Source: Antedon mediterranea (Eukaryota; Animalia; Echinodermata). From it: a stretch of DNA of 64,000 nt. The stretch is from NCBI RefSeq assembly GCF_964355755.1, contig NC_092675.1:29732912-29796911 (forward strand), read 5' to 3'. The position numbers were made by a program, and so were the translations under genes. This document shows, in pieces, positions 13,793 to 58,900 of this stretch (positions within the stretch are counted from its first letter, which is position 1; each line of letters starts with the position of its first letter). Below the pieces are notes generated by a model that ran no database searches, was not told the origin of the DNA, and saw nothing but the letters and a program-made list of their open reading frames with translations.

Positions 13793-15641
13793 ATATACAT
13801 TTCCTCCAAGGCATGATGTAAACATTTTACTCACTTGGTTTTTCAGGAAGGGAAAAATTGAAAGTTGGTGGAGGAATGTGGCACTCACAGACCCTTTCAT
13901 GGAGGAATCCATCGAAACATCTGCCTTGTTGTGACATGTGCTTAGAATATTTTTATTTGTAGAATCTGTGATACAAAATATTATATTTGTCTTTAATAAA
14001 TATTAAGGAGAAACGTTTATGCGACACGGACAATCTCTATTCAGAGACAAACAAGCAGCTAATACTAGTTAAATCAGTAGCACTTTACATCAATTATCAT
14101 AAAATTAAACTTTGAACATTTCTGCAGGTAGGTAATTATAATATAGCAAGTCATAGTCTTGATCTACTGAAAAACATACTTGAATTTTAACTTACCATAT
14201 GAAAATAATATTCCCAAATTAAGGTTTAATTATATAAACTTGAGTGTTCTTCTACATCGAGCAAACTGTTGTTGTTAAAGCTGAAAGAAATGTAAAAAGG
14301 CTTTAGTAATTATTAGAGAATTGCTATTCTTTTACTGTATCCTTTACACACATTAGATCCAAATATACTGAACTGAACCTAAACTGAAGACCTTTTGGGA
14401 TTAGGTTAGGCCTACCGTACAGTACCAGTAAATGATTTACGCTCAGTTTACATTATCTAGTTTGAAAAAAACAGCTTGATGTGTCCAATGGCAATGATAA
14501 TGACAGCATTTAAAAAAAAAAAAATTTAATATAGGCCTACTATCTTACCAACTATATAGTATAAAGTATAAGTAGCTCTACTGTATAGTAAAGTAGCCAC
14601 ACTAAATCAGGAAGGAGGTATAAACAAAAACAGTACACATACTGTATCTACCAAAACCCCAAAAAGATGCAGTTCTTATCACCAAGTAAACATACCTTAA
14701 TATTATTGGTTGAATTTGTCTCCGTCCTACATATTCTAAACAAAACAATAAACAACCGATCCGAGAGAGCAACAGTGTATCAACCAAATACGTTTCTCTA
14801 TTAAATAAACAATGAAGTTGTTGTAATCCACAAATAGAGGGCGCACCATCTGTAATTCCAATTGTCAGATGAAGGAATTTCCTTGTATCATACAGTACAG
14901 TATTATATAATTATGAATATTATAACATGCATAATAACATAATTTATATAATACCATATTTAGAATTATACCGTACTTTATCAACATTATTTACTGTTCA
15001 AATAACTATTCAATTGTTTCCATTGTGTATACAAATTATTTTTATATTTTATATAATATTGTCTGTACAGTAGTAGTAGAAGATTTTCTGATTTTTATAT
15101 GAATTAGACCAATAAAAGATGAGTTAAATCAAACCATGATTTTTATTAACTATTAAAAATAAATATCTAATTAACTAACAATAATACAACATAAACATAA
15201 AAAATTAAAATTAATAAAATAACTCCTGAATTATTATGCAATTTTAAACTAATTTCATAGTGTGTAAAGTATTTTCAAATACTCTACAGAAACATTTTAC
15301 AGCATACTTAAACTATAAAAAAATGTACTTTAAATTAAAGGTACTGTAGTACATCCTTTAAACTGTTGGAGTAAATGACCCAGAGTTTAGTTCGTAGAGG
15401 AGAGTCAAGGGAGGGCTCAGCTGTTCACAATGCAGCCCACTCAACAATCCTGCTTCCGTGGTTTCAGTTATAATGGGTATTTTGGCAGCTGAGCATATAC
15501 ATTCCTTTTCTCTGTGCCTATAAGTTCCTTTTCCCTGTGCCTATAAGTATTTCTTGGCTAGCATTTTAAGAATCTTGAGCAATTGGTAATAGTCTTACTG
15601 GTCTACTAGCATATATTTGTATGCTAGCATCTTCTTAATGT

Positions 15642-16702
15642 CTAAGATTCTTGCATGCTCAATTGTGGGTAGACTCTGTAGGCAGCATATCTCCCTGCAT
15701 ATATCACATAACCCCAGGCCAGCATTACTATGGCAGCAAGTACCTGAAACATTGAACAAATTAAAAAAAATTGAGAGAAGACGTACAACACAACAAGCCC
15801 TTATATAAAGAAAACACAATCCACCAGTCAACTACACAATTCATATTATTAAATACGCCTTTTTCATGAAATGGAAGACATCTTCGATCGATAACATTCA
15901 ATGCTGTGCAGGGAGAGCATATCTTCAGAGGACAAGTTACTTTTTAAAAATTCTTAATTCCGTAACACTAACAGTCTTCTTGTGGACAAAATTGTTACTG
16001 TAAATGTTCTTAAAAGATTAGTAGCTTTCTTTCAGACTAAAAGTAATAGTATGGTATTGAATCCCCCTGGAAAACAATAAGGTTTATCGCAAATAGCTTC
16101 TACAATGCATGATGGGAAGGGTTTGGGAGCAAACGTCACGACGTGTACGTACGTATATACGTACGCGTCGTGACGTTTGCTCCCAAATCCTTCCCACCAT
16201 GCGTCGCGCACGCTATTTGCGTTATTGAAAAATTGTTTTGTGAAAAACCCGTATTAAAGACCTATGCAGGCTAGTAGGCTAGGTAGAACAGCACCCGAAT
16301 ATGTAGTACTAACTAGGCCAGCCTTACCTGGCCTGCTATGATGTGTGCGCCAAACATACACCGCCTCACTCAGGTCAGTAGTATAGGAGGCCGGCCTAGA
16401 GCCCACTGCTGGTGTAGACTGTAGGCAAGGTGGATTAAGCCTAGCTAGGCTACCTTAGCCTCTACTTCTAGGCCTAGACTCTAGGCTAGAGGCTCTAGCT
16501 AGCTAGGCTACGCTAGGCCTAGAGTAGTACTAGTAGTAGGCATAGATAGGTAGGTAGGCCTAGCCCTAGGCCTAGCCTAGCCTAGGCTAGATAGAGTAAG
16601 GAAGTATGTAATAAAAATACTGTATTAGGAAGTCTACACAATTGAAATGCAATTTACCAAAGAAATGAGCCGATCAACTGTTTGTTTGCTAGTTATTCTC
16701 AT
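15642..16702 (-). CDS. SMIM27: SMIM27-like small integral membrane protein, 48 aa, two coding exons
   Basis: Exon 16658-16702 (MRITSKQTVDRLISL, donor GTAAAT) plus exon 15642-15743 (acceptor TTTCAG; VLAAIVMLAWGYVIYAGRYAAYRVYPQLSMQES*). Aligns with remembered human SMIM27 MKPVSRRTLDWIYSVLLLAIVLISWGCIIYAS and lies divergent from TOPORS as in human. Confidence 0.85.
16086..16222. repeat. Imperfect ~135-bp palindrome (hairpin MITE-like) in the SMIM27 intron
   Basis: TGGGAAGGGTTTGGGAGCAAACGTCACGACG...CGTCGTGACGTTTGCTCCCAAATCCTTCCCA, with outer CGCAAATAGC/GCTATTTGCG. Confidence 0.85.
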
Positions 16703-16934
16703 GGTAATAATTTGGTTGTAAGGAATAAGAAAAACTCATCTTTACAAACGTAAACATGAACAACCAACCGTCGTTAGGCTAGCAGCTAGCTAGGCCGGCT
16801 GCATTGATTTTTTTGCGATCTTTGATTCGACGTTGAGGGCGATGTTTCGTATTTATTCTGGAACAAAACGGAAAGTACGATCGACTAGCCTACAACAAGA
16901 AGTGATTTTGATTTGTAGACACCCACAAAATAAG
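16703..16934. promoter_or_regulatory. Putative bidirectional SMIM27/TOPORS promoter and TOPORS non-coding exon 1
   Basis: CpG-containing stretch between the SMIM27 ATG (16702, -) and a + strand donor AAG|GTAATT at 16934/16935. Confidence 0.55.
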
Positions 16935-18173
16935 GTAATTTTGTGACAATTCTACTTCTTTCTAAAAAATAAATTGAATTATTATTATACTGATAATTAT
17001 ATAGTTTGTGTTAAGTACATAGATTTACAGATTCTGATATATTTTTAATTTTATAGTCGAGAAACATTGGTCTAAATTTTCGGATGCACTGTGCCTGTGT
17101 GTCCTGAGCCAGCGTCAAACACAGCAGTAACTGCTGGTTATTATCGACGAGAGCGGATGAGGTTTGATTTGACCCATCATGAGAAGCAGTCAGTAGGGGG
17201 ATTGTTTAGCCTAGAAAACGTTCGCTATATAATTATTCGTATTAATCCTTTCACAGTATAGTCACACTGTCAAGTAAGTATCTTTTGCAGAAAATGTTCA
17301 GCCTATTTTAATAATAATTCATAATTGTTATTTTATAACTTAAATTACAAATTTTAGTTTTACAAGCGAAGTGTAGTGACATCATAATTCACACTACAGC
17401 CTAGGGCCTAGGCCTATGTATGTGCGTGTTAATACAATATTAATAATATGATTTAACATACAGATCCTAACGAAATTAAGTAAAATTGTTGAAGATAAGA
17501 AACAAGAACAAGTCAGGCCGACTACAGGCTCCTAGAGCTGATACGTAAAGAAATCGACTGTCATTTGTATTGTACCAAATTCCATGCAAATTTTAGATCA
17601 TAATAAATAGCGCACATGCAATATATATATATATTTTAAAAAGTTTTTACAGTTTTTAAATGGGAATATAATTTTAAACCTAAATATAACATAATAATTT
17701 TAAGTGGGATTGATGTACAATTAATGTTTTTAATTGTAATTTTTATCTATGTATGATGTACTCTTGTGAATGTTTTGTTTATTTTACCATAATTATTTTC
17801 TGTCGAGGAAAACAATTTTTCCATGTACGCATTTTTATATATAGAACAAAAAAGATTTGATTTGATAAATGATTTCAGTGTGAACGCTACTCATTGTGAA
17901 TCATCTAACAATTGTGTCCAGTGCAAGGTGAAATCTAAAATAACAAAAGGTTGTGTGTGCGAAACTGATGTATAGTACAGTGTAACAATAGAATTGCATA
18001 ATACTAATTATTTTCAAAGTATGTTGGACTTTTGTTAGACTTTCCACAGGTCTTCAGTTAGGTTTTTTTTTATGTTATTGTTAAATATTAATATTTTCTG
18101 CTCAAGTATTATATGTTGTATGAAACGCCATGTATTGCATTGTATTGTTTCCTTTCTTTCAGACGATAATAAA

Positions 18174-20837
18174 ATGGCATCAAAAGAAGTTGTGATACCA
18201 CCTGAACAGACCACAACACCACCTGTATTGACGAAGGACAAGACAGAAGAAAATGTGCCACGCCCAGAACGAAGTTCTTCACCCGATGAAAACTGTTCAA
18301 TTTGTTTAAACCAATTTGAAAATCAGTCATTTACCGATCAATGTTTTCACAAATTCTGTTTTGTGTGTATTTTAGAGTGGTCAAAGGTCAAGGCGGTTTG
18401 CCCATTATGCAAGACCGCTTTCAAATCAATTATTCACAATATTGTTTCTAACGAGATTTACGATCAGTATCATCTTCAGCCAAATGCCCCAGCTACAGAG
18501 GAACATGAACAAGAGGTACGGAGATTCAGATATAGGACCACAGTGACTGATGACCACAGATATGCATGGGAGCGTCAACGAAACCATACATTTCTGCAGT
18601 TACCGCATGAAAATAGTAGATTTTACATGACTCATCATGAAGATCGGAGACGATTGCGTATTCAAAACCTGAGACGTTCCCTCGAGCAGAGTATTCGAAA
18701 TAACATGCGTTTGCAAAATCAGCGCAATGCTGCATATAATTTTCGTCGATATATCTACGGAGTTGGATCATATGTGAAGCAAACACGATTTAATCGGTTT
18801 TCAGGATATCGTGATATTTCACTTGGTTACTTCCAACGTAATCCTGCAGCGGCTTACCGGTTTGTGCCATGGTTACAGAGAGACTTGGGTGTGATATTTA
18901 ATGGAGATCAGAACCATGTACTTTTTGTTACAGAGTTGATCTTATCACTTATTCAACGTATAGATATCCAAACATATGAGTTCAGAAACAGTCTTGAAGG
19001 ATTTTTGCTCAGTAAAACTGATCATTTTGTTCATGAGTTCATCAATTTTGCACGTTCCCCGTATGATGTCACAACTTACGACCAGATGGCGCAATATAAT
19101 ACATCAAGACCTAGCGAACCCCCACCGGTGGATATTAACGAACCGTTGCTTGTCATCTCCAGTGATTCTGACACAGATGTCATTCTAGATTTGAGTTCCC
19201 ATTCAAGAGAAGAGGTTCTTCCCACTGCCTTCCCTCTGTTAGAATCTGACATTAATGTCATTCCTGGAACATCTGGATCCAGTAGCAATACACAGAATCA
19301 GATGGTGAAGCAGGAGAAAAAGGACACTACAGAAATAAATTTAACCAATGAATTATCTGATGTTGAGATCATTGGCTACTTACCACCTTATCGTGAACGA
19401 ACTCCAGTAGTGGTCACACTATCCTCTGACACAGAAGAGGATGAACAACCCACATGTAGGAAATGTGGCCAGCCTAAACACACTTCAAAGTGTAAGAAAA
19501 TTAAAAGAAAACCAAAAAATCCACATTGCATGTATTCAGCTTATCAATCTAGTTCTGCTGAAGATTTTAGTAGATCAAGTCAGTCAAGGAGTAGAAGTCG
19601 GTCAAGACCAAAGTCTGATAGAGTCAGCTCATCAAGAGATAAAAGTGTCACAAAAAAATTAATATCAACCTCGGCATCTTCATCATCTTCTGGCAATTAT
19701 TCGTCGGATACCGAAGATTATTCTAAAGATAAATATAACAAATCAAAATCTCGATCTCCATTTGAAAAATATGATAGTTCCGCTACGAAACATTGCAAAT
19801 CTTCCAACACTAGGTCTTACAAAAAACAACGTAGATCACGAAGTAGATCTGCAGGATTCGGATCACGTAGTAGGTCCCGTAGTAGATCACGCAGTATCTC
19901 TCACATTCGACAAATGTCACCATTCTACAAGACATCTAGAGATCGCTTCAGATCACGTAGCAGGTCAGGAAGTAGATCTCAAAGGACTCGCAGGTCTCGG
20001 ACTAGAAGCAGGAGTCGTGATAAAGAAGCTACCAGTAGATCCCACACCAGAAGTCACGAAAGAGACAATAGGCACAGGTCTTCTACAAAATTTGTAACAA
20101 AATTGTATTGGTCAGATGAATGTGACCAAAGTGCTGTGAATTATAGACAAGGTGATAATAATAAACATATTAGCAACAGAGAAAGTATAAAACGACACAG
20201 GTCATCGGAAAGAAGAAGCTCGTCGAGAAGCAGAAGTTACAGGTCGTCGTCGTCTTCCAAGAGTAAAGCATTATTTAAAAGAAAATACTTTCAAAAGGAA
20301 AGGTCAAAGGAAAGGTCAGTTGGAAAAATAGATTCTTCAAAAAGGCATAAACAGAGATCGAAAGAAAAACAAGAGGCAAGAAGAAAAAGAAGAGAGAAGA
20401 GGCAATTAGAAAAGAAGAAAAAAGCAGCTGGTGTTTCTAAAGATTTAATTGTTATTGATCTGACAGAATCTGCGGATGAAAAAGCAAGGAATAGAGAAGG
20501 TCAAGAAATGATAGATGACAGTTTATTATTTGAGGAAGAAGTTGGAACAGTGAACCAAGTTGAACATAATCTATCTTTTGGCCAAACCTCGGACGTTGGA
20601 CCAATGAGAGCAATGCTACTAGAAGATGTCACTCAGACGATTCCTCCATTGAATGTTGTAGATCCTTCGCTCGATGCTGTTGATGAAATATTTGGAAGGT
20701 CAGGCAACCAATCTTTAGAACCAATTCAAAAAACTGCTTTTGATTTGATGATAGAAGCAGAGAGAATGCGCCTTCAGGAGATGTTTGAGCAAAATCCTGA
20801 TTTAAGACGAGACGCCATGAAAGCTTACAATAAATAA
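18174..20837 (+). CDS. TOPORS: E3 ubiquitin/SUMO ligase Topors, single coding exon, 887 aa
   Basis: C3HC4 RING (CSICL...CFHKFCFVCILEWSKVKAVCPLCK), RRFRYRTT, PWLQRDL/HFVHEFINFARSPYD motifs, SIM-like motifs (LLVISSDSD, VVVTLSSD, LIVIDLT) and an RS-rich region. Acceptor TTTCAG at 18162 makes ATG 18174 the likely start. Confidence 0.95.
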   Translation: MASKEVVIPPEQTTTPPVLTKDKTEENVPRPERSSSPDENCSICLNQFENQSFTDQCFHKFCFVCILEWSKVKAVCPLCKTAFKSIIHNIVSNEIYDQYHLQPNAPATEEHEQEVRRFRYRTTVTDDHRYAWERQRNHTFLQLPHENSRFYMTHHEDRRRLRIQNLRRSLEQSIRNNMRLQNQRNAAYNFRRYIYGVGSYVKQTRFNRFSGYRDISLGYFQRNPAAAYRFVPWLQRDLGVIFNGDQNHVLFVTELILSLIQRIDIQTYEFRNSLEGFLLSKTDHFVHEFINFARSPYDVTTYDQMAQYNTSRPSEPPPVDINEPLLVISSDSDTDVILDLSSHSREEVLPTAFPLLESDINVIPGTSGSSSNTQNQMVKQEKKDTTEINLTNELSDVEIIGYLPPYRERTPVVVTLSSDTEEDEQPTCRKCGQPKHTSKCKKIKRKPKNPHCMYSAYQSSSAEDFSRSSQSRSRSRSRPKSDRVSSSRDKSVTKKLISTSASSSSSGNYSSDTEDYSKDKYNKSKSRSPFEKYDSSATKHCKSSNTRSYKKQRRSRSRSAGFGSRSRSRSRSRSISHIRQMSPFYKTSRDRFRSRSRSGSRSQRTRRSRTRSRSRDKEATSRSHTRSHERDNRHRSSTKFVTKLYWSDECDQSAVNYRQGDNNKHISNRESIKRHRSSERRSSSRSRSYRSSSSSKSKALFKRKYFQKERSKERSVGKIDSSKRHKQRSKEKQEARRKRREKRQLEKKKKAAGVSKDLIVIDLTESADEKARNREGQEMIDDSLLFEEEVGTVNQVEHNLSFGQTSDVGPMRAMLLEDVTQTIPPLNVVDPSLDAVDEIFGRSGNQSLEPIQKTAFDLMIEAERMRLQEMFEQNPDLRRDAMKAYNK

Positions 20838-21410: not shown

Positions 21411-22976
21411 ATCCTTATATAATATTTATATGTTTACTGAAATTCTCTCCCTCGGTATTACCTGTACTAATACCAGGGCTTGCTAATACACACACCAACA
21501 TTTTTGTTTTCACAAACCATTATGTGTGAGAGGCAGGGCTGGGGAAAGAAAGTGATATTAATGTACATTTGTACATTGTTTCTGTTTAAATGAAATTTAC
21601 AAATTAAATGTCGTGTTCACAAAACTACCATGTGATTATTATTTTGTGCTGTAGTAAGCATAGGCATGCTATTTCTCCCCATTACATGTTTACAAAACAA
21701 CAACAACTTGGCTCCTGCTATACTCTTAGTTCTGTTTAGTTTGACAAAAAAGTGATGTGCCCAAATATGGTAGTGATATGACATCATCATGTTCATATAT
21801 GGGCACATCACATTTGTTGTCACTAAAGTTTGATAGTGTAGACAGAGCTTAAGCAGCATTTAAATTGTGATCTCAGGGATTTTGTTTTCATTTCATTATT
21901 TTAACATTGCTTGATAAGTTTAAACAACATTTTAACCAAAAGTATGTATTACAATTATTTTCCTTGTTAATTGTATTCAATATATTTGACTACATACAAT
22001 AAATGAAATAATGTAGCAAAATAGTACTTATTTTAAGTTACAGTATTTTTATTTCTATAAATATTTCTTGTTAATATAATGATATAATTGTATAGTCTTA
22101 ATAAAGTTGACCTTGCTATGTTTTAAATATTTAAACAATTGCTGCATTGGGTTCAACTTAATTGAAGTACAGTTGTAATACAATAATAGTTTTTGTTTTT
22201 ATTTCGAATCTATATAAATACAATAAGCAAAATATATACAGGAATACACAATTAATTCTTAACACAGATTGGGTCCTAGAGCTAACTGTGTTATATGAGG
22301 GAATAGTGAAATTATAATATCACTCTTTCCTGGTTATAACATCTCAGATAACATATACTGTATAAAATGTAAATTCTTGGACTTTTTTTCTTTTTCAGTT
22401 ATAATTTTATTCCATGTTCCTAGCACGTTTGGTGGTTAATACACACTACATATGAGTTTATATTATTTATTAAAAATGTTTGTTTGATTATGAATGTACA
22501 TAATTGAATTAGAATAATAACTGTAGCTTGTTTTTGATAATATCAAAGCGGATGAAAGTAGTAAACATATTAAAGTCATCTATGCATATATTATTTTCAG
22601 TGTTTTATTTTCACCATGGATTTTCGCCAAAATATCTCAAAACAATCTCTGGAGTTCCTACTATATAGTACTAGACACGCATTGACGCAATTTTATGACG
22701 TGATGAAAAAAATATGTAAATATATTTATACTGTATAGAGATTAATCACACTACATGGAAGCAAAAATCAACTCTGACTATAAACTGTACTACATTCATT
22801 TTAATAAAGTTCAATATGTTTTGTATGCAACAACAAGGCTTATTTCTATTTAGGCACAGTGTTATTTTAATTAGTGATACATTTTATTTTTATGCTGTAG
22901 TGTTGTCATTTGATAACAAGACGAGTTCCTTTGCATTCTCTCCAGTAAATATACCGTGATAAATTAGTTTTGAAGT

Positions 22977-25900
22977 TCATCGTTTTAATCTGAGAAGAAA
23001 TGCGTGTCTACATTCCTTGCTTTCTTCCGGATAATACTTGTCATAAAAGTCTACGATGAATTCTTCAGGTTTGAATCCAAACCTCTGATATAAAAGCATC
23101 GCTGAATTGGTCGCAGACACATGTAGAGTTACGTCTTTACCCATGCAAGTCTAGCAAAAAACAGAAAGTAAACATATAAATTTAGTTTAACAGCAGCATG
23201 TGATCCATTGTGGGGCACTGAATTGTCTTACAGTTGTCACAGAAACCATACATTCCAACAGCCCACTTTAGCTAGGAGACTCCTGTATTTTAGACTCGTC
23301 TCCAAGCCTAACATTGTTTTCCACATTTTCTCCTGGAATACACAGATAACTAAATGGTGATGTATATGTGTGGTTTTCTGCATTGATAACAAAAAGGCAA
23401 ACACACAAGCAAAATTACAATATTTAAGCCATTGTATGTCCATCTACATCCATCATTTTTTTCTAAACGGAAAGGGGATCCCTCACATAGCCATAACGCG
23501 ATACCGCTTGTGACCTCCAGTTTTTTTAAACTTTAGATATATTGTATGACAACCCTACAAATAATAGAGTTCACCAATATTAAATAATACTAGTGTTTGT
23601 ACCTGTATAAGATGATAAACCATAAATGTAGCAATACCAGCACCTCTCCATTCAGGATGAACAAATAAAAATGATATATACGCCACATTATACTTAACAT
23701 CTGGTACCATGAACCCAAAACCGATCACAACCTTTTTATAAAGCGCCACCACGCTGAAGTCCGAATACTGTAAACATTCAGATACTGTCAAAGAATTTAG
23801 AAATAGTCCGTCAATTAATAATGTACTCCTCAGATACTAAATCTACGAATCATGTAAAGCTCTGCCTACACTATCAAACTAGTTTGACAAAAAAAAGTGT
23901 GGTGTGCCCAAATATGGTAGTGATATACCCAAATATAGTAGTGATATGACATTGTGTCCATAAATAGGTACATCACATTTCATATGTGCAAAAAATGTGA
24001 TGCCCATATATAGACACGATGAGGTCATATCACTATCATATTTGGGCACATCACATTAGTTTGATTGTTTGACAGAGTTAACAAATTAACAAACAAACCA
24101 GATTTATGAAACTTACAATCCACTCCTGGCCAGAAGAACTCTCTACATAGAGCATTCACAGAAGGAATGTGCTGTGGCCTTACATAGCAGTAGTCTATTG
24201 GTCCTAGAGGCTCGGGTATAAATGATGGATCCATCTTTGCCTTGTGAGACATCAATTCTTCTAATAAACGCAATTTCATTGGCCGGCTTTCAAAATCTCT
24301 TCTAATAAATGGTTTTAATACCCTGAAAGGATAGTAGTATCTTAACTCAAATAACTAATTGCTAAGCAATAGCACAAGTATTTAGATTGTTACTAGTAAC
24401 AATCCTACTGGGTACAATGATAAAAATAGTAAAATATATTTCTGTCCAAGACTAAAGCAATATTATTTTTTTTTAATAACAGTTTCCATGTACTAAAATC
24501 CAGGGAGCAGTTGACCAATGACATAAGGAGGGGAAGGGGGTGGTGGTGTTAGGAGGAGGCAGGGGCATTGGGGCTTGCTTCCTCACTTGGATCAAGGCAA
24601 TCTAACAATCCAGGATGCTGAGATCAAAGGGTTTATCTGTGGCTGCGACACGATCAGTTTGATGCCCTTCAACAGACTGTGACACATCACACTGCTGAGA
24701 ATATGTACATAGTACAGTACTGTCGGTATTTGTTGCAGCCAGACATAAGATCAAAGGAGTGTTACGAGTTCCTATCTTGGTAAGGCAACCTCAGTGTCCT
24801 GTTCGATTGCCTTGCTTGAATCTTGTTTTGGCAGGTTATAAGTCTCTGATGCGTAGGTTATTATTATTATCACAAAACTAATTATATCTCTATCTATTAT
24901 ATTATGCAAGTCCTACCTAGATGTATAAGGACTACAAATATTTTGTAATGACATCTCATCCTGACAACCAACAAGACGAGTGCGAAATGTAGGGTTCCTC
25001 ATCTTGTAATTCTTGACTGATGCTTGAGGTATCTATTCAATTGAAATTCAATTATATTGATTGCCACAAAAATACAGTATTATAATGTTATACAGTATAA
25101 ATCTTTTTTTTTTAAATTTATTTATTTTTTATTTATTCAATTTCTGCCATATACATAACAAAGAAGACAAAACAATTATAAAAGGAGGCACGGAAAGACC
25201 AAACAGGTGCTAAACACCTATGCTAGTTGGTCAACCCAGAACAGAGAAAAATAAATAAATTACGTTCTACAATAAAAGCATCGACAAGAAAGCGACCAAC
25301 TACACACATTTTCGATATCAAAATTATTTAAAAAATAAATATTGAGATAATTTTAAAGATAGCGCAGTAAAATTCTAAATAACTTTATAAATAGGTCTTA
25401 CCTGAAACCTGTCAAGAATCCTGAAGTCGGACGAGTAGCGTGTGATGTGTCCAGTTTTAGCGGTCATTTTTGGACTATGAACCTCAAAACACGAAGGGTC
25501 AATGGCAGTAGTGTTGGTGATTGATTGTAAGTAAGATTGTAGAGTTGCGTCTAAATCTAGCAAAGGGAGCCCTCGTTGTCTTTTCTCTTGACGTACTAGA
25601 AGCTTTCTACGTAGTCTTCGCGCACTAAGATCCGATTCAACGGCTTCGGGACAGTTTTCTAAGAACTTTAAAAGTTGTCTTTCTTCATAAATGCTGATTG
25701 GTAGAAACCTGGAAAAAGAGAGATAAAAACACCACAGAGAAAATAAAACTTGACACCATACACACAAAATGTAACAAAAAGTTATATAATAATAATAATC
25801 TTGCAAATCTTTGACATAGATTGTCATTGTGCAAACGTAATGTAAAGTAAACACTTTAAGATGTTGAAATATTTGCACACATACATTGATGTTTACACAG

Positions 25901-50532: not shown

Positions 50533-51159
50533 TTAATAGTGGACGATTGTTGCTGTGTGTTGTGGCCTAATTTGTGAATGGTTACGTTCCTTTAAAAGTT
50601 TAACAAATAGAATCAACTATACGGAAACATTATAGCAAACTTGGCCAATTAAAAACATTCCATTTACCTACGTTTTTCTTACGAATGCTACAGAGTGATT
50701 GATTATTCTACTATAGTATTTTGCACTTTTAATTCAAACACAGTAAAACCATCGATCATTGTTTCGGTCAGGTTTGTTAAGAACATGACAAATATTGAAG
50801 TGCTAACAAATCAATGATTAAATTAGAGCATTTAAATTACACGTTTTGTGTTCTTAGATTTAATGTTCTTGTCAGAACAAACACGATAAATCAATACAAA
50901 TAATGACTACAATATTACAAAGTATGATCTCCAAGGCAACGGCTCGTTTTCAACAACCAATTAATAATCAGAATAGATGCTACTTTGTTTAAAAGTGTGT
51001 TTAACGCTCCCACTGCCATCAATTAAACTGCACAAACAAATACTGCAATACCGTACTAAAAATAAAAAAAATCCCATTTTTTTTTTATTATTGAAAGGAC
51101 CATTTGTTATTATACCGTACTTATCATCCAAACAAATTGTGCTATTATACTCAATGTTA

Positions 51160-51830
51160 AGATTTACGTTCATGCTACGTGAATGATGTAGATTTACGTT
51201 CATACTACGTGAATGATGTAGATTTACGTTCATACTACGTGAATGATGTAGATTTACGTTCATACTACGTGAATGATGTAGATTTACGTTCACACCACGT
51301 GAATGATGTAGATTCACGTTCATACTACGTGAATGATGTAGATTTACGTTCACACTACGTGAATGATGTAGATTTACGTTCACACTACGTGAATGATGTA
51401 GATTTACGTTCACAATACGTGAATGATGTAGATTTACGTTCACACTACGTGAATGACGTAGATTTACGTTCATACTACGTGAATGATGTAGATTTACGTT
51501 CATACTACGTGAATGATGTAGATTTACATTCACACTACGTGAATGATGTAGATTTACGTTCACACCACGTGAATGATGTAGATTTACGTTAGCACTACGT
51601 GAATGATGTAGATTTACGTTCACACTACGTGAATGATGTAGATTTACGTTCACACTACGTGAATGATGTATATTTACGTTCACACCACGTGAATGATGTA
51701 GATTTACGTTCACACCACGTGAATGATGTAGATTTACGTTCATACTACGTTAATGATGTAGATTTACGTTCATACTACGTGAATGATGTAAATTTACGTT
51801 TATACTACGTGAATGATGTAGACTTACGTT
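51160..51830. repeat. 30-bp minisatellite, about 22 copies
   Basis: (GATTTACGTTCATACTACGTGAATGATGTA)n. Confidence 0.95.
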
Positions 51831-52938: not shown

Positions 52939-55900
52939 TATATATTATATATAATATATATATATATATATATATTATATATAATATATATATATATATT
53001 ATATACAAATTATATACAAATACAGTTTGTACAGTATAATTCTATCTATTTACTTTTCTCTATTTTAAAATATATAGCAATTTATCATACTTTTATTTAA
53101 AACCTAAATAATAAATAAATGACAGATTGTCTATCAACCTAACTTAATGCTGGCTACCTTTTTGCTTGTAGTTGTAGAAAAGTAATTTAATCTGATTTGA
53201 TTGATATGATTTTGATACCAATTGATTTCTGATATTTTCTATAAAATCTCTTAATTTAATTTAATAATCAAATTATAAATGCAAACAGGAATTTTCTAAA
53301 TAAAATGTCTTTATTTATATAAATAATTATTTCATTCGACAGAGGCAAAGATGGCGGTTTTTCGACCCCAAGGTAAACCACTTATTGTTCCAAACGCACT
53401 GAGTCACAACGTGAATACAGGTATGCTACCCACTACAAGGAAAGACTTTGCAGGGTCTAGACCAGCAACGTCATCAGGCACTAGGTTTGGTCAGCTCAGC
53501 CAAAACCCATTCTTCACCAGACATAACCCTCACCCTGGTCGTGTACGACACATCAAAGGTAAGGCCATTCACAATACTAAAATCTGAAAAGAAAAAGTAT
53601 ATTATATAAATTAATAGAAGTTCAAGAAGTACTGTAAAAACAAATAATCTCTAACTGTATCACCAAAATTTGAAATTTAGAAATTTTATGAAAATTAATT
53701 AAATAATTCTGTGAATATCTAGGCTTCCATTATATTTTACTTAAGTCAAGATATTAGAAAGTGCTTAAGTGAAAACAATCTTTATTTATCTACTAACCAG
53801 TTCTTTTTATCTCAACAAATGTACTGTCATCTAAGATAGAACAAAAAGTATTCACAAATATTTGCTATTTTGGAAACCTATACTTAAGAACATTCATTGA
53901 CTTAAAATTATGTTTTTGATATCAAGCAAATTTGATAAATCTGTGTTACTATCTTAAATGTTTTTTATGAGACATTTATGTGCAAATGTCTTCAACAAGA
54001 GTGACATTTTATGAAAAATCCGGAAATAAAATACATCACAAAATAAATGTACGGAAATGATATGATAAATCATGATTTTGTATGGTTAAAGATGTATTGT
54101 CTCCCTGAAAAAATAATTAAAACATTTTCTGTTGAATATGCCATTTTAATGTCACATATTAGTTATCCACTTTGATCAAAAATTAGATCTTCATTTTTCA
54201 TGTTTTTGGGGGACAAATACATCTTTAATGTTCTATGACAATTATTTAATGTATGTTTTGCAATTTACAATTTCCAAGGATTAAATGATATTCCAATTTG
54301 TGCCGTCCGTGATGATGACAGGCCTCCAACAGCCTACAGACGATTACCCACTTCTGAAACGCCGCGAAGATCCTATCAGATGCCTGCCACTCAAGCGAAT
54401 AAATTTGGTTCAAATCAACCGACACATCTTAGTGCGAAAGATTTTGACAGAAAATTACTACAAAATTTGAGTAAAAAATATCAATTAGAGATGAGTAAGT
54501 GAAGCATGTATTCTGGGTTGCCAATTGTCTGCTGTCTCACATCTTTACATATTTTTATTTCATGTTTCATTCTGAATTTAATTGTAGTTCACTAAAAAGA
54601 ATTTATATTCAACTACTAACAATTAATAATTTTTAAGAAACTTGTCCGCTTTTATTTGCAATGCAGCACGCCATTTTAACATATTCATAACAATTTGGAT
54701 ATTCTAGTTAGCATCGCCATTTTGTTCAACATGATCTATAATATAAAACAAGCTCTTGGAAGAGTTCAAGATTGATTTTGAGTAGAGTCGTAAACAAAGT
54801 TACATAAATTTACTTGTTAAGGGTTGTAATAAATGTTTATTTTAACAACTCTTGAATGAAGTGGAGCTGTAGTTTGGTGGTTAGCATGCTTGCCTTCCAA
54901 TCCAAAGGTCTGGGGTTCGATCCAGACCTAGTGCCAGGGTAACTCACGACTCTTTTAACTCCACTCGTTAAGCCTCAAATGAGACCTTAGTTTATAAGCA
55001 CGATAAATTATAAAATAGTTTATCCATCCTGTAATTGGCAAGTTTGTGTTGGCTGTTGGATGCGAATGAAATAAAAAAAAATATAATGGGAAAAATGATA
55101 TTGACATTTCTATGAATTCAAGTGTAATAATCAAAAATCCTATCAAACATTCTTATTAGTTGTTTTTACTTTACAGTTTTTCTTTAGCATGTTCCATCTG
55201 CTTTCAATCTTACTTTTTATTCACTAACCTACAAAACACATGGAAAGGCAACTAACTGCCTTAATTCATAACATTGACTACTCATCATGTTAATATGCTC
55301 ACAAAAACTCAAGGCAATTGTCTCTTAGCAACCAAAAATGCATGTGGTCACTTTACAGCAATACCTAGCAACTGAGGATCTTCGGCAGGCAATCAGACGG
55401 GGCATGTGAGGGAGGCAGGCGGGGCATGTGAGGGAGGCAGGCGGGGCATGTGAAGTAGTCAGGTCTATATTTAGGCATGTAGACAATGTTCAAATAGATA
55501 TCCACCATTTTCCCTACTGTTTGCTATCAAACCAAAATGCGGTGCTCATTTGCATGTTTTAATACGCAGGTTTACTAGACGTTCCGATATGTACGGTGCA
55601 TGATGATGGTTACATGTCAAACGTGAAATACGGCAAGGCCAAACCACCATCAACCGCAGACAGCCGAAAGCTCTACTCATACAGCATCCCTCAGCGAATT
55701 AACAGACATAATTATAAAATTCAAAATTTAAATCCAACTTTGAACTCAGGGATGTTTCCAATTAACACGATAACTGGTTTGAGTTCTTACCCAATGGGGT
55801 TTAAAGAGAAAGCGTACCCAAAGCTAGGTGTTGGTAAGTGATCATCGCTTTAAAATACTCACCTTTAGGTTGTACTACACGGGCATACAAGCAATAGAAT

Positions 55901-58900
55901 AAGATCTGAACATGCTCACAAACTAATGAATGTTGTCATAGCTTCTGTAACTGGAACCCTAGTATTGGGACAGCTTTGAGACCCAACAAAGTGTCCTCTT
56001 AATAGCCTTAAAAGTCTCCTAAACAGGGTTTGGTCGTGTTAAAATATATATTGCTTGCCCGATTGCTTGTCCGAAAGTTTCTCCTTAATATGGGTGTACT
56101 AATGGAGATGTTCTACAGTATACCGTATACTAAATTGGGAATCACCGTGGATGCGAAAAATTTAAATCATACATGCTCATGATTAATCTATTGTTTTAGT
56201 GCTGTGTAGTACAACTCAAAGGTTACTATTTTTACTGCAACACAACTTAACTATCATCTTATGTTTGTGAATATAATACTAATCCTGTCGTGTAATAGTT
56301 TTTTAACTAACTATACATTTCAAATTACGGTACTAACAATCTACTCATTTAAAAGCACTGTATTGCATTGAAAAATAAAAAACACTTTAAATAAAATATA
56401 ATACAGCAGGGCACTTATAGTCGGATGGGTTTTAACTAACTATACAGATTACAGATTACAGAAAAAATATATTTGTTTATAAACAAATAAATGTAAGTAT
56501 GCAAAACAATGTATCTTTAATATACTATTATTGAAATAAAATGTACATATTATTTATCATTAATTTATATACATTGCAAAAATATGTTAAACTTAAAATT
56601 TGAATTTGAATACCCTTAAAAATGCACAAAAAAATATATAAAATAAATATACTGTATAAAAATAAATATATATAAATTAAAATCCATTTTTCAATGACTA
56701 TTCTATAATTTATAAATTTAATAAATTGTTTTAATTTAATATTAAAGTACCCATGACAGACTCCTGGCGTGATGAATTACGAGAATTCACAGAGAAGGCT
56801 GGTCTAAGCCTGCCGAGAGAGGTAAGAGAACAGCAAGATGAACTGCCTCGTAGAACGTCTGTCTACTCGGCAGAAACAGGCAGACTGATACCATCAAGGT
56901 CTATGCAGCGAGGATATTCAAGACAGCGCCAACGTGAACCTCATTATTTTAATCATATCCAACCAGAGCAAGCTAATGAATCACTAGTAAGTATTGTATG
57001 AATAATGAAGACAATTATAATACGACGTCGTTATATAATGATTTGATAGAGGTTATGATGCATATGATTATGGACTTTATAATGATTTGATAGAGGTTAT
57101 GATGCATATGATGATGGACTTTATAATGATTTGATAGAGGTTATGGTGCATATGATGGACTTTATAATGATTTGATAGAGGTTATGGTGCATATGATGGA
57201 CTTTATAATGATAATATAATGAAAATAATTTAAAAAAAATGAATACAGTAATGTAATAATGTCATGGTGATAATTATGGCCACTAACCATTAATCATTAT
57301 ACAAATAATGAATGTTTATGAGTTGGATGGTGAGAATATTTCATGAGTTGAACAGTTCTATATTTACCAAGGCGGAGCTGAGTTGAGTTATACAACAGTC
57401 AATTTTTCATTGAATGAAATATTCTTTCCATTCAACGAATACAAAACATTTATCAATGAATACAAACAGTAGGTTGGGAAGCTATTAAATAGACGCAGAA
57501 TACAGTTATTGATGGTGAGCACAACAAGTCCATTTCCGAACGTGATCAGTCTAAACGTCAGTTATTGATGGTGAGCACAACATGTCCATTTCCGAACGTG
57601 ATCAGTCTAAACGTCATGTTGCAAAAATTCTCAAAATGTTTACAGAAAGCTGAACATGCATTAGAGCGTGTTATTTATCACCATTAGATATGTCACTTTT
57701 TCGTTAGGTAAAGCTAAAACATGATGCGAAATTAACCAATTAAATTACCAGAATACAATCAGTGTTATAAAACATGATAAATGACAATGATGTTCTATTG
57801 ATATTTGTTAACATTCAAGTGTGCCATTGTACGACACCAATATAAACCTTTATATTATTTTTTCTACTACAGATATTGGAAATGCTCTGTCAGATTCTAC
57901 AGACAGATTCTATAAGTGCTGTCCAGTCTTGGTTAGTTTCAGCGAATCACAGAGGTAAACAATCATGTATTATATAGTAAAATATTAAACATTATAACAC
58001 TCTCCTTCACAACAACAAGAATCTACTTAGATGTTATATGAACAAATAATAAATGTTTTTTATATTTATGCAATGGTACAAATAATTTCATTTGGTGAAA
58101 TATGAAATTCCATTTTCAACCCGGCTTTACCTTTTATGAATCTTATAAAATTATTTGTACCATTACACTCATAATCATTCATTATTTGTACCATTACACT
58201 CATTAAGCATTCATTATCTTTACCATTACACTCATAAGCATTCATTATCTGTACCATTACACTCATAAGCATTCATTATTTGTACAATTACACTCATTAA
58301 GCATTCATTATCTTTACCATTACACTCATAAGCATTCATTATCTGTACCATTACACTCATAAGCATTCATTATTTGTACCATTACACTCATTAAGCATTC
58401 ATTATTTGTACCATTACACTCATAAGCATTCATTATCTGTACCATTACACTCATAAGCATTCATTATTTGTACAATTACACTCATAAGCATTCATTATTT
58501 GTACCATAACATTCATAAGCATTCATTATCTGTACAATTACACTCATAAGCATTCATTATTTGTACCATTTCCCATAAGCATTCATTATTTGTACCATTA
58601 CACTCATAAGCATTCATTATTTGTACCATTCATTATTTTAAACAGAAATGGAAAAATCAATTCATTTTTCAAATTCCTTAAACATACAGAAAAAGATTTA
58701 GTTTTGGACATGATTCGAACAGCTATGCTGCCAGATGAGCAAACCCTAAGGCAGCAGTTCGATCCTTCATTAATGCATCAACAACCGCCTTCAAACATGA
58801 ACTTACAAAATGGATATGGAGAAATAGATAAATTCCATGAGGAAGACCAAACGCGGTATTCACGGTATGCTTATGATGAGGATGTACGTAAAAGCGCTTC

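Follow-up and report, generated by a model that had tools for sequence, protein, structure and literature searches.

We found that a 64,000-nt stretch of the Antedon mediterranea genome (contig NC_092675.1; hereafter the window) carries on its minus strand a small spliced gene that encodes 48 residues and lies head-to-head with TOPORS. We read this gene as the crinoid SMIM27, encoding a membrane helix predicted to serve the MKS complex as a small subunit in the ciliary transition zone and likely sharing a promoter with TOPORS, and we give this reading as a whole a probability of roughly 0.7.

A two-exon gene is predicted to encode a 48-residue microprotein

Translation of the window joins coding exons of 45 nt and 102 nt on the minus strand into a frame of 48 residues, the first 38 of which are exactly the 38 residues quoted in an earlier annotation made from the letters of the window alone (the sequence-only reading). 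That reading had proposed a spliced 48-residue gene upstream of TOPORS, and the proposal is borne out by the exons, a GT-AG intron, a spliced contig from one sequencing run (X1) and a homologue, P0086, each described below. The intron opens with a GT donor at 16657 and closes with a pyrimidine tract followed by AG at 15745-15744. The gene and the elements within it are as follows.

16658..16702, minus strand: coding exon 1, 15 codons, with the ATG at 16702-16700 and A at -3; inside the spliced X1 contig; 7 of 15 residues identical to P0086
16703..16793, minus strand: 5' leader, to the extent seen in the X1 contig; the start of transcription may be further out
16689..16757, minus strand: upstream open reading frame, out of frame, with ATGs at 16757 and 16739 (22 and 16 residues), overlapping the main start codon
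15744..16657, minus strand: GT-AG intron of 914 nt, phase 0, after codon 15, matching the X1 joint; same codon and same phase in the human gene
15642..15743, minus strand: coding exon 2, 33 codons plus TAG (ending at 15642), with most of the hydrophobic segment and conserved W25, G26, I29, Y30 and A31
15334..15641, minus strand: 3' UTR, to the extent seen in the X1 contig
16085..16224, no strand: palindromic multi-copy element within the intron, probably MITE-like, with 67-nt arms that are 85% complementary

The summed depth of the palindrome is very high, far above that of a single copy, in three runs. An AATAAA motif lies at 15147, beyond the part of the 3' UTR covered by X1.

One run carries the spliced form

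Five sequencing runs from two studies matched the locus, none of them recorded as RNA, and four of the five were compared with the window. Strand was assigned from splice-site polarity, and the assembled contigs carry no transcript starts, ends or levels. In X1, a run from one study that is RNA by guess only, a single 613-nt contig spans 15334-15740 and 16655-16793 and skips exactly 914 nt (15744-16657), a joint reported as 'skips 914, CT..AC (cut +3)'. The 16658/15743 junction predicted by the sequence-only reading is therefore present in one contig of a run whose RNA status is guessed; the joint was seen in none of the three other runs compared, in which contigs extend from the exons into the intron.

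Within the coding exons, X1 and the window disagree at 15655 only, in codon 45 of the variable tail, and run X3 has this difference too. The 308-nt 3' UTR adds five more differences, and the total is insufficient to test for selection. The spliced contig also bears 32 loose letters on its 5' side (at 16793) and 30 on its 3' side (at 15334). These loose ends match nowhere in the window at up to three mismatches and may represent an allele, a distant exon or an assembly artefact.

An unnamed homologue supports both exons

Searching 1.84 billion representative proteins with exon 2 alone and no word index returned a single match at E ≤0.001, a 48-residue protein designated P0086 (E 8.7e-05), with residues 2-29 of the query aligned to residues 17-44 and 15 residues left in front. 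Because those first 15 residues had played no part in the search, they provide a blind test of exon 1. Exon 1 is identical to the P0086 N-terminus at 7 of 15 positions with a score of 30, the highest among the 114 15-mers of the window that start with M and are followed by GT (next best, 11), and two of the 50,690 stop-free 15-mers of the window reach that score. Exon 2 is identical to P0086 at 19 of 33 positions. The crinoid peptide and P0086 are equal in length and identical in register at 26 of 48 residues (7/15 plus 19/33). P0086 derives from one 1,984-nt Logan contig and forms a single-member cluster with no name.

A search with a three-row alignment recovered P0086 itself and nothing else, and a word-index search of 5.8 billion proteins (26-86 residues) gave no candidates for a query made of exon 2 and 16 residues encoded by the intron. 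The peptide search that the sequence-only reading had put forward as a check thus yielded one unnamed homologue, but no named SMIM27 appeared among the matches of the three protein searches and Pfam returned no family for the microprotein. PDB held no sequence at E ≤10, and the best Atlas score (0.78, unnamed) fell under that resource's threshold for a lead. Unlike the microprotein of the window, the neighbouring TOPORS protein was recovered from protein collections (P0004), which suggests that the small gene has gone unannotated.

The gene is the likely orthologue of human SMIM27

We compared the crinoid peptide with the human TOPORS-AS1 open reading frame, which is listed as 55 residues on the plus strand of chromosome 9 with a PhyloCSF score of 99.96 and a frame kept in 17 species, and for which the BED columns list 45 coding nt followed, after an intron, by 123 nt (PMC4568590, supplement file 10, row 9323). 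A preprint equates TOPORS-AS1 with SMIM27. By hand count, the human and window peptides are identical at 16 of 38 residues in an ungapped alignment of residues 1-38 (positions 1, 5, 8, 10, 14, 17, 19, 20, 21, 25, 26, 29, 30, 31, 36 and 38; BLOSUM62 sum of 86), and beyond residue 38 they share a YP pair after a four-residue gap. The likeness to human SMIM27 stated in the sequence-only reading consequently holds against the printed human frame. It also extends past what was claimed there, since 45 coding nt precede the human intron, so that in human and crinoid alike a phase-0 intron follows codon 15. Human SMIM27 and P0086 are identical at 19 of residues 1-38, and 14 residues are common to human, window and P0086 (hand count).

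As a null for this alignment, P0086 and the window peptide were shuffled, either whole or within N-terminal, membrane and tail segments, in four designs of 100,000 shuffles each. A sum of 86 was reached by none of the 100,000 shuffles in any design (highest sums of 42, 53, 63 and 85), and 16 identities were reached by 0, 0, 1 and 78 shuffles, respectively. The strictest null was the segment shuffle of the window peptide, in which 78 of 100,000 reached 16 identities and one scored 85.

Convergence of short hydrophobic peptides, with an unrelated small gene lying beside TOPORS by chance, would be favoured by that single score of 85, by the ease with which short membrane helices align, and by the lack of a Pfam, PDB or Atlas family that connects the crinoid peptide with SMIM27. 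Convergence would, however, require an ungapped alignment from the first residue, the same intron codon and phase, and the same neighbour in the same orientation all to coincide, and we regard it as very improbable. Sequence, intron position and neighbour taken together make orthology very likely, and we have little doubt that the two-exon gene is the crinoid orthologue of SMIM27. It is accordingly a further member of a known gene and not a new kind of gene.

Among the papers listed, titles and abstract openings gave no invertebrate SMIM27 orthologue and no conserved SMIM27-TOPORS pair, although the primary functional paper may show such orthologues. Nothing was found in the supplements of PMC7066179, PMC3827063 and PMC4568590 (file 11), and the main text of PMC6886504 is without SMIM27.

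The human and crinoid proteins are alike in having about 50 residues and one hydrophobic segment, and in being encoded on the strand opposite to TOPORS at the 5' end of that gene, but they differ in length (55 versus 48 residues), with a shorter and less basic tail in the crinoid. Their spacing from TOPORS also differs: the human frame is flagged as overlapping an annotated CDS, which we take to be the exon with the TOPORS start codon, so that the human TOPORS start codon would overlap the SMIM27 start, whereas the crinoid TOPORS start is 1,472 nt away.

TOPORS is divergent and putatively shares a promoter

Two further features concern the neighbouring gene.

18163..20837, plus strand: TOPORS coding exon, with an acceptor before 18163 and the ATG at 18174; 887 residues with a RING finger and an RS-rich region; X1 contig over 18159-20848
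16794..16934, no strand: putative promoter for both genes and, likewise putative, a non-coding first exon for TOPORS, with a donor at 16935 or alternatively 17274; outside the X1 pieces

The plus-strand frame at 18039-20837 encodes an N-terminal C3HC4 RING (PF00097, E 3e-08 in Pfam), the conserved domain that follows it and an RS-rich region, as in TOPORS. With residues 75-360 as the query, we obtained 82 proteins at E ≤1e-10, the named ones mostly Topors. The best named match is a Topors-like protein of the crinoid Anneissia japonica (71%), the next near-full-coverage matches reach at most 47%, and the N-terminus that begins at the ATG at 18174 resembles that of Anneissia TOPORS. The gap between 71% and 47% would by itself point to a feather star as the likely source of the DNA. 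The divergent placement described by the sequence-only reading is what we observe, with TOPORS on the plus strand, the microprotein on the minus strand and 1,472 nt between their ATGs.

The X1 contig over 18159-20848 has 13 extra letters on its 5' side, suggesting a spliced non-coding first exon. The last four aligned bases of this contig fit the donors at 16935 and 17274 at three of four positions, the best of 18 donor-like sites, and with either donor the 5' end of TOPORS would be no more than a few hundred bases from the leader of the microprotein, which is seen to 16793. Position 16934, at which the sequence-only reading had ended its feature, is therefore a plausible end for a first TOPORS exon without coding sequence, with 17274 as an equally good alternative. 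CpG observed/expected is 1.42 in 16751-17000, and the human promoter is implied to lie within 1 kb of a coding neighbour (PMC11145268). We think it quite likely that the SMIM27-like gene and TOPORS share one putative promoter.

On the TOPORS strand, the reverse complement of the microprotein start context (window 16700-16710) contains an ATG and then a donor-like GT. A crinoid TOPORS start that overlaps the microprotein start (plus-strand ATG then GT, 16701-16705) was considered and found no support: a direct splice from there to 18163 would break the frame, the available bridging exons number only three, all of them short and with weak acceptors, and the end of the TOPORS contig fits this donor at one of four bases.

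The pair is seen at two end points

To survey TOPORS upstream regions, as the sequence-only reading had suggested, metagenome contigs were scanned with a 25-sequence TOPORS alignment, giving at least 586 stretches and, among the matches listed, 82 relatives and 79 loci; these TOPORS-like loci are short, lack a taxon and are in part other RING genes. No SMIM27-like gene emerged there. No credible SMIM27-like exon 2 was present in the 79 loci among the matches listed (best score 30.5 of 305,440 24-mers, compared with a hand-computed score of about 60 for the human sequence). Of the 35 loci with 2 kb or more of upstream sequence among the matches listed, 33 were scanned upstream and gave neither a two-exon nor an intronless model (best score 21.5, compared to 149.5 for the window itself as positive control). 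The remaining two loci, L067 and L073, were left out of the upstream two-exon scan and included in the exon 2 scan. Given its material, the metagenome scan speaks neither for nor against the pair outside deuterostomes.

The claim that the pairing is conserved from an invertebrate to human therefore stands for its two end points, this genome and the human genome, in both of which the genes are divergent at short distance, but gained no pair from the metagenome loci. These data resemble the head-to-head pairs described in work on ancient animal microsynteny (PMC3514665), in which two unrelated genes stay adjacent and divergent over long times; the present case differs in that one partner is a microprotein gene missed by annotation, and in that two end points are known. 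The SMIM27-TOPORS gene pair is likely older than vertebrates.

The predicted peptide is a single membrane helix

The sole hydrophobic segment of the crinoid peptide covers residues 12-30, with a maximum of 2.31 over 19 residues (2.57 for P0086), and a structural model of P0086 built from the three-row alignment predicts one helix over residues 2-39 (pLDDT 86.6, pTM 0.52). The shared residues 10, 14, 17, 21, 25 and 29 are spaced by three or four and would occupy one helix face, a spacing that would suit packing against another membrane protein.

Whether the transcript acts through this peptide can be weighed from conservation. The transcript might instead act chiefly as a regulatory RNA, antisense or promoter-associated, that yields little peptide, with the upstream open reading frame diverting ribosomes; work on human TOPORS-AS1 has treated it as a lncRNA (PMC8021562), and the leader covered by X1 has two upstream ATGs, one of them with A at -3, that precede and overlap the main start. 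The protein is nevertheless conserved in frame across the splice junction among crinoid, P0086 and human, as results from selection on a peptide, and the human frame has a PhyloCSF score of 99.96 and is kept in 17 species (PMC4568590). We consider the RNA role improbable, and predict that the crinoid peptide is very probably made.

A transition-zone role is the favoured function

The sequence-only reading had called SMIM27 poorly characterised, a description that is superseded by the table of a 2026 review, which lists SMIM27 at 55 residues, places it in the ciliary transition zone, and names the MKS complex as its partner and ciliogenesis as its function (PMC13143143). The MKS core is reported to be conserved across ciliated eukaryotes (PMC4092220). 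By analogy with SMIM27, we judge a transition-zone role for the crinoid peptide to be on balance probable. The entry in the review's table probably comes from Sun et al. in Dev Cell, reference 143 and the one other point in the review that concerns cilia.

Under this reading, the RNA would be translated into a 48-residue single-pass membrane helix, residues 12-30 would cross the membrane, and the conserved stripe of D10, S14, L17, V21, W25 and I29 would pack against membrane helices of MKS proteins, helping to build the ciliary gate. One promoter would drive both SMIM27 and TOPORS and so keep the two genes together. The peptide would likely share its workplace, and its mode of helix packing in the transition-zone membrane, with the small MKS-module membrane proteins TMEM17, TMEM216, TMEM107 and TMEM231. 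These are larger than SMIM27 and multi-pass, and Pfam gave no sequence link between them and the microprotein, as would be expected.

A true and translated SMIM27 orthologue could also have had a general ancestral membrane job, for example as a small subunit or chaperone of the secretory pathway, with the ciliary role secondary or specific to vertebrates and the promoter an ordinary bidirectional one of the housekeeping kind. SMIM27 scored in two monocyte CRISPRi screens, for NF-kB and for differentiation, although its neighbour may explain this (PMC11145268). The crinoid tail is unlike the human tail, and placement at the transition zone comes from the SMIM27 literature and not from the crinoid. 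Against a general role, the only function listed for SMIM27 in the review table is at the transition zone (PMC13143143), and the MKS complex is old enough for echinoderms to have it (PMC4092220). We therefore regard a general membrane role as rather unlikely and favour the transition-zone subunit.

Implications for the age and annotation of SMIM27

On these data, the peptide, the position of its intron and its place beside TOPORS would all predate the divergence of echinoderms from chordates, more than 500 million years ago. A review holds that most microproteins are young (PMC13143143), a view to which such an age for SMIM27 runs counter. TOPORS is itself described at the nucleus and the basal body and is a proposed oral-facial-digital syndrome gene (PMC8361718). 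It is tempting, if doubtful, to suppose that SMIM27 is an ancient ciliary-gate subunit, invisible to annotation, that has been held with TOPORS on one bidirectional promoter since the echinoderm-vertebrate ancestor because the two form a co-regulated ciliary unit. If so, effects ascribed to the 5' region of TOPORS or to the 'lncRNA' TOPORS-AS1 would in part be effects on the SMIM27 peptide.

As SMIM27 is seemingly missing from protein collections that include TOPORS, it would be counted as absent in surveys of how the transition zone evolved. The 14 residues common to human, crinoid and P0086 likely mark a binding face that is open to mutation tests, for which echinoderm embryos would be an easy ciliated system.

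Other features of the window

Several further features were observed in the window. An extremely high-copy short element occupies 21709-21975, and in each of the four runs its summed depth lies between the hundreds of thousands and the millions. On the minus strand at 50964-51749, a pentapeptide match (PF13599) below the cut-off falls on a 30-bp tandem array (51160-51830) and is likely an artefact of that repeat. Between 29787 and 35252, about 5.5 kb consist of a 21-bp satellite whose blocks alternate in orientation, which explains the many long open reading frames found there. A GNAT acetyltransferase exon (23558-23836, minus strand; PF00583, E 3.6e-09) is convergent with the 3' end of TOPORS, and the SPATIAL family (PF15256, best E 1.8e-08) is matched by three plus-strand frames at 53327-56998, which are likely exons of one gene.
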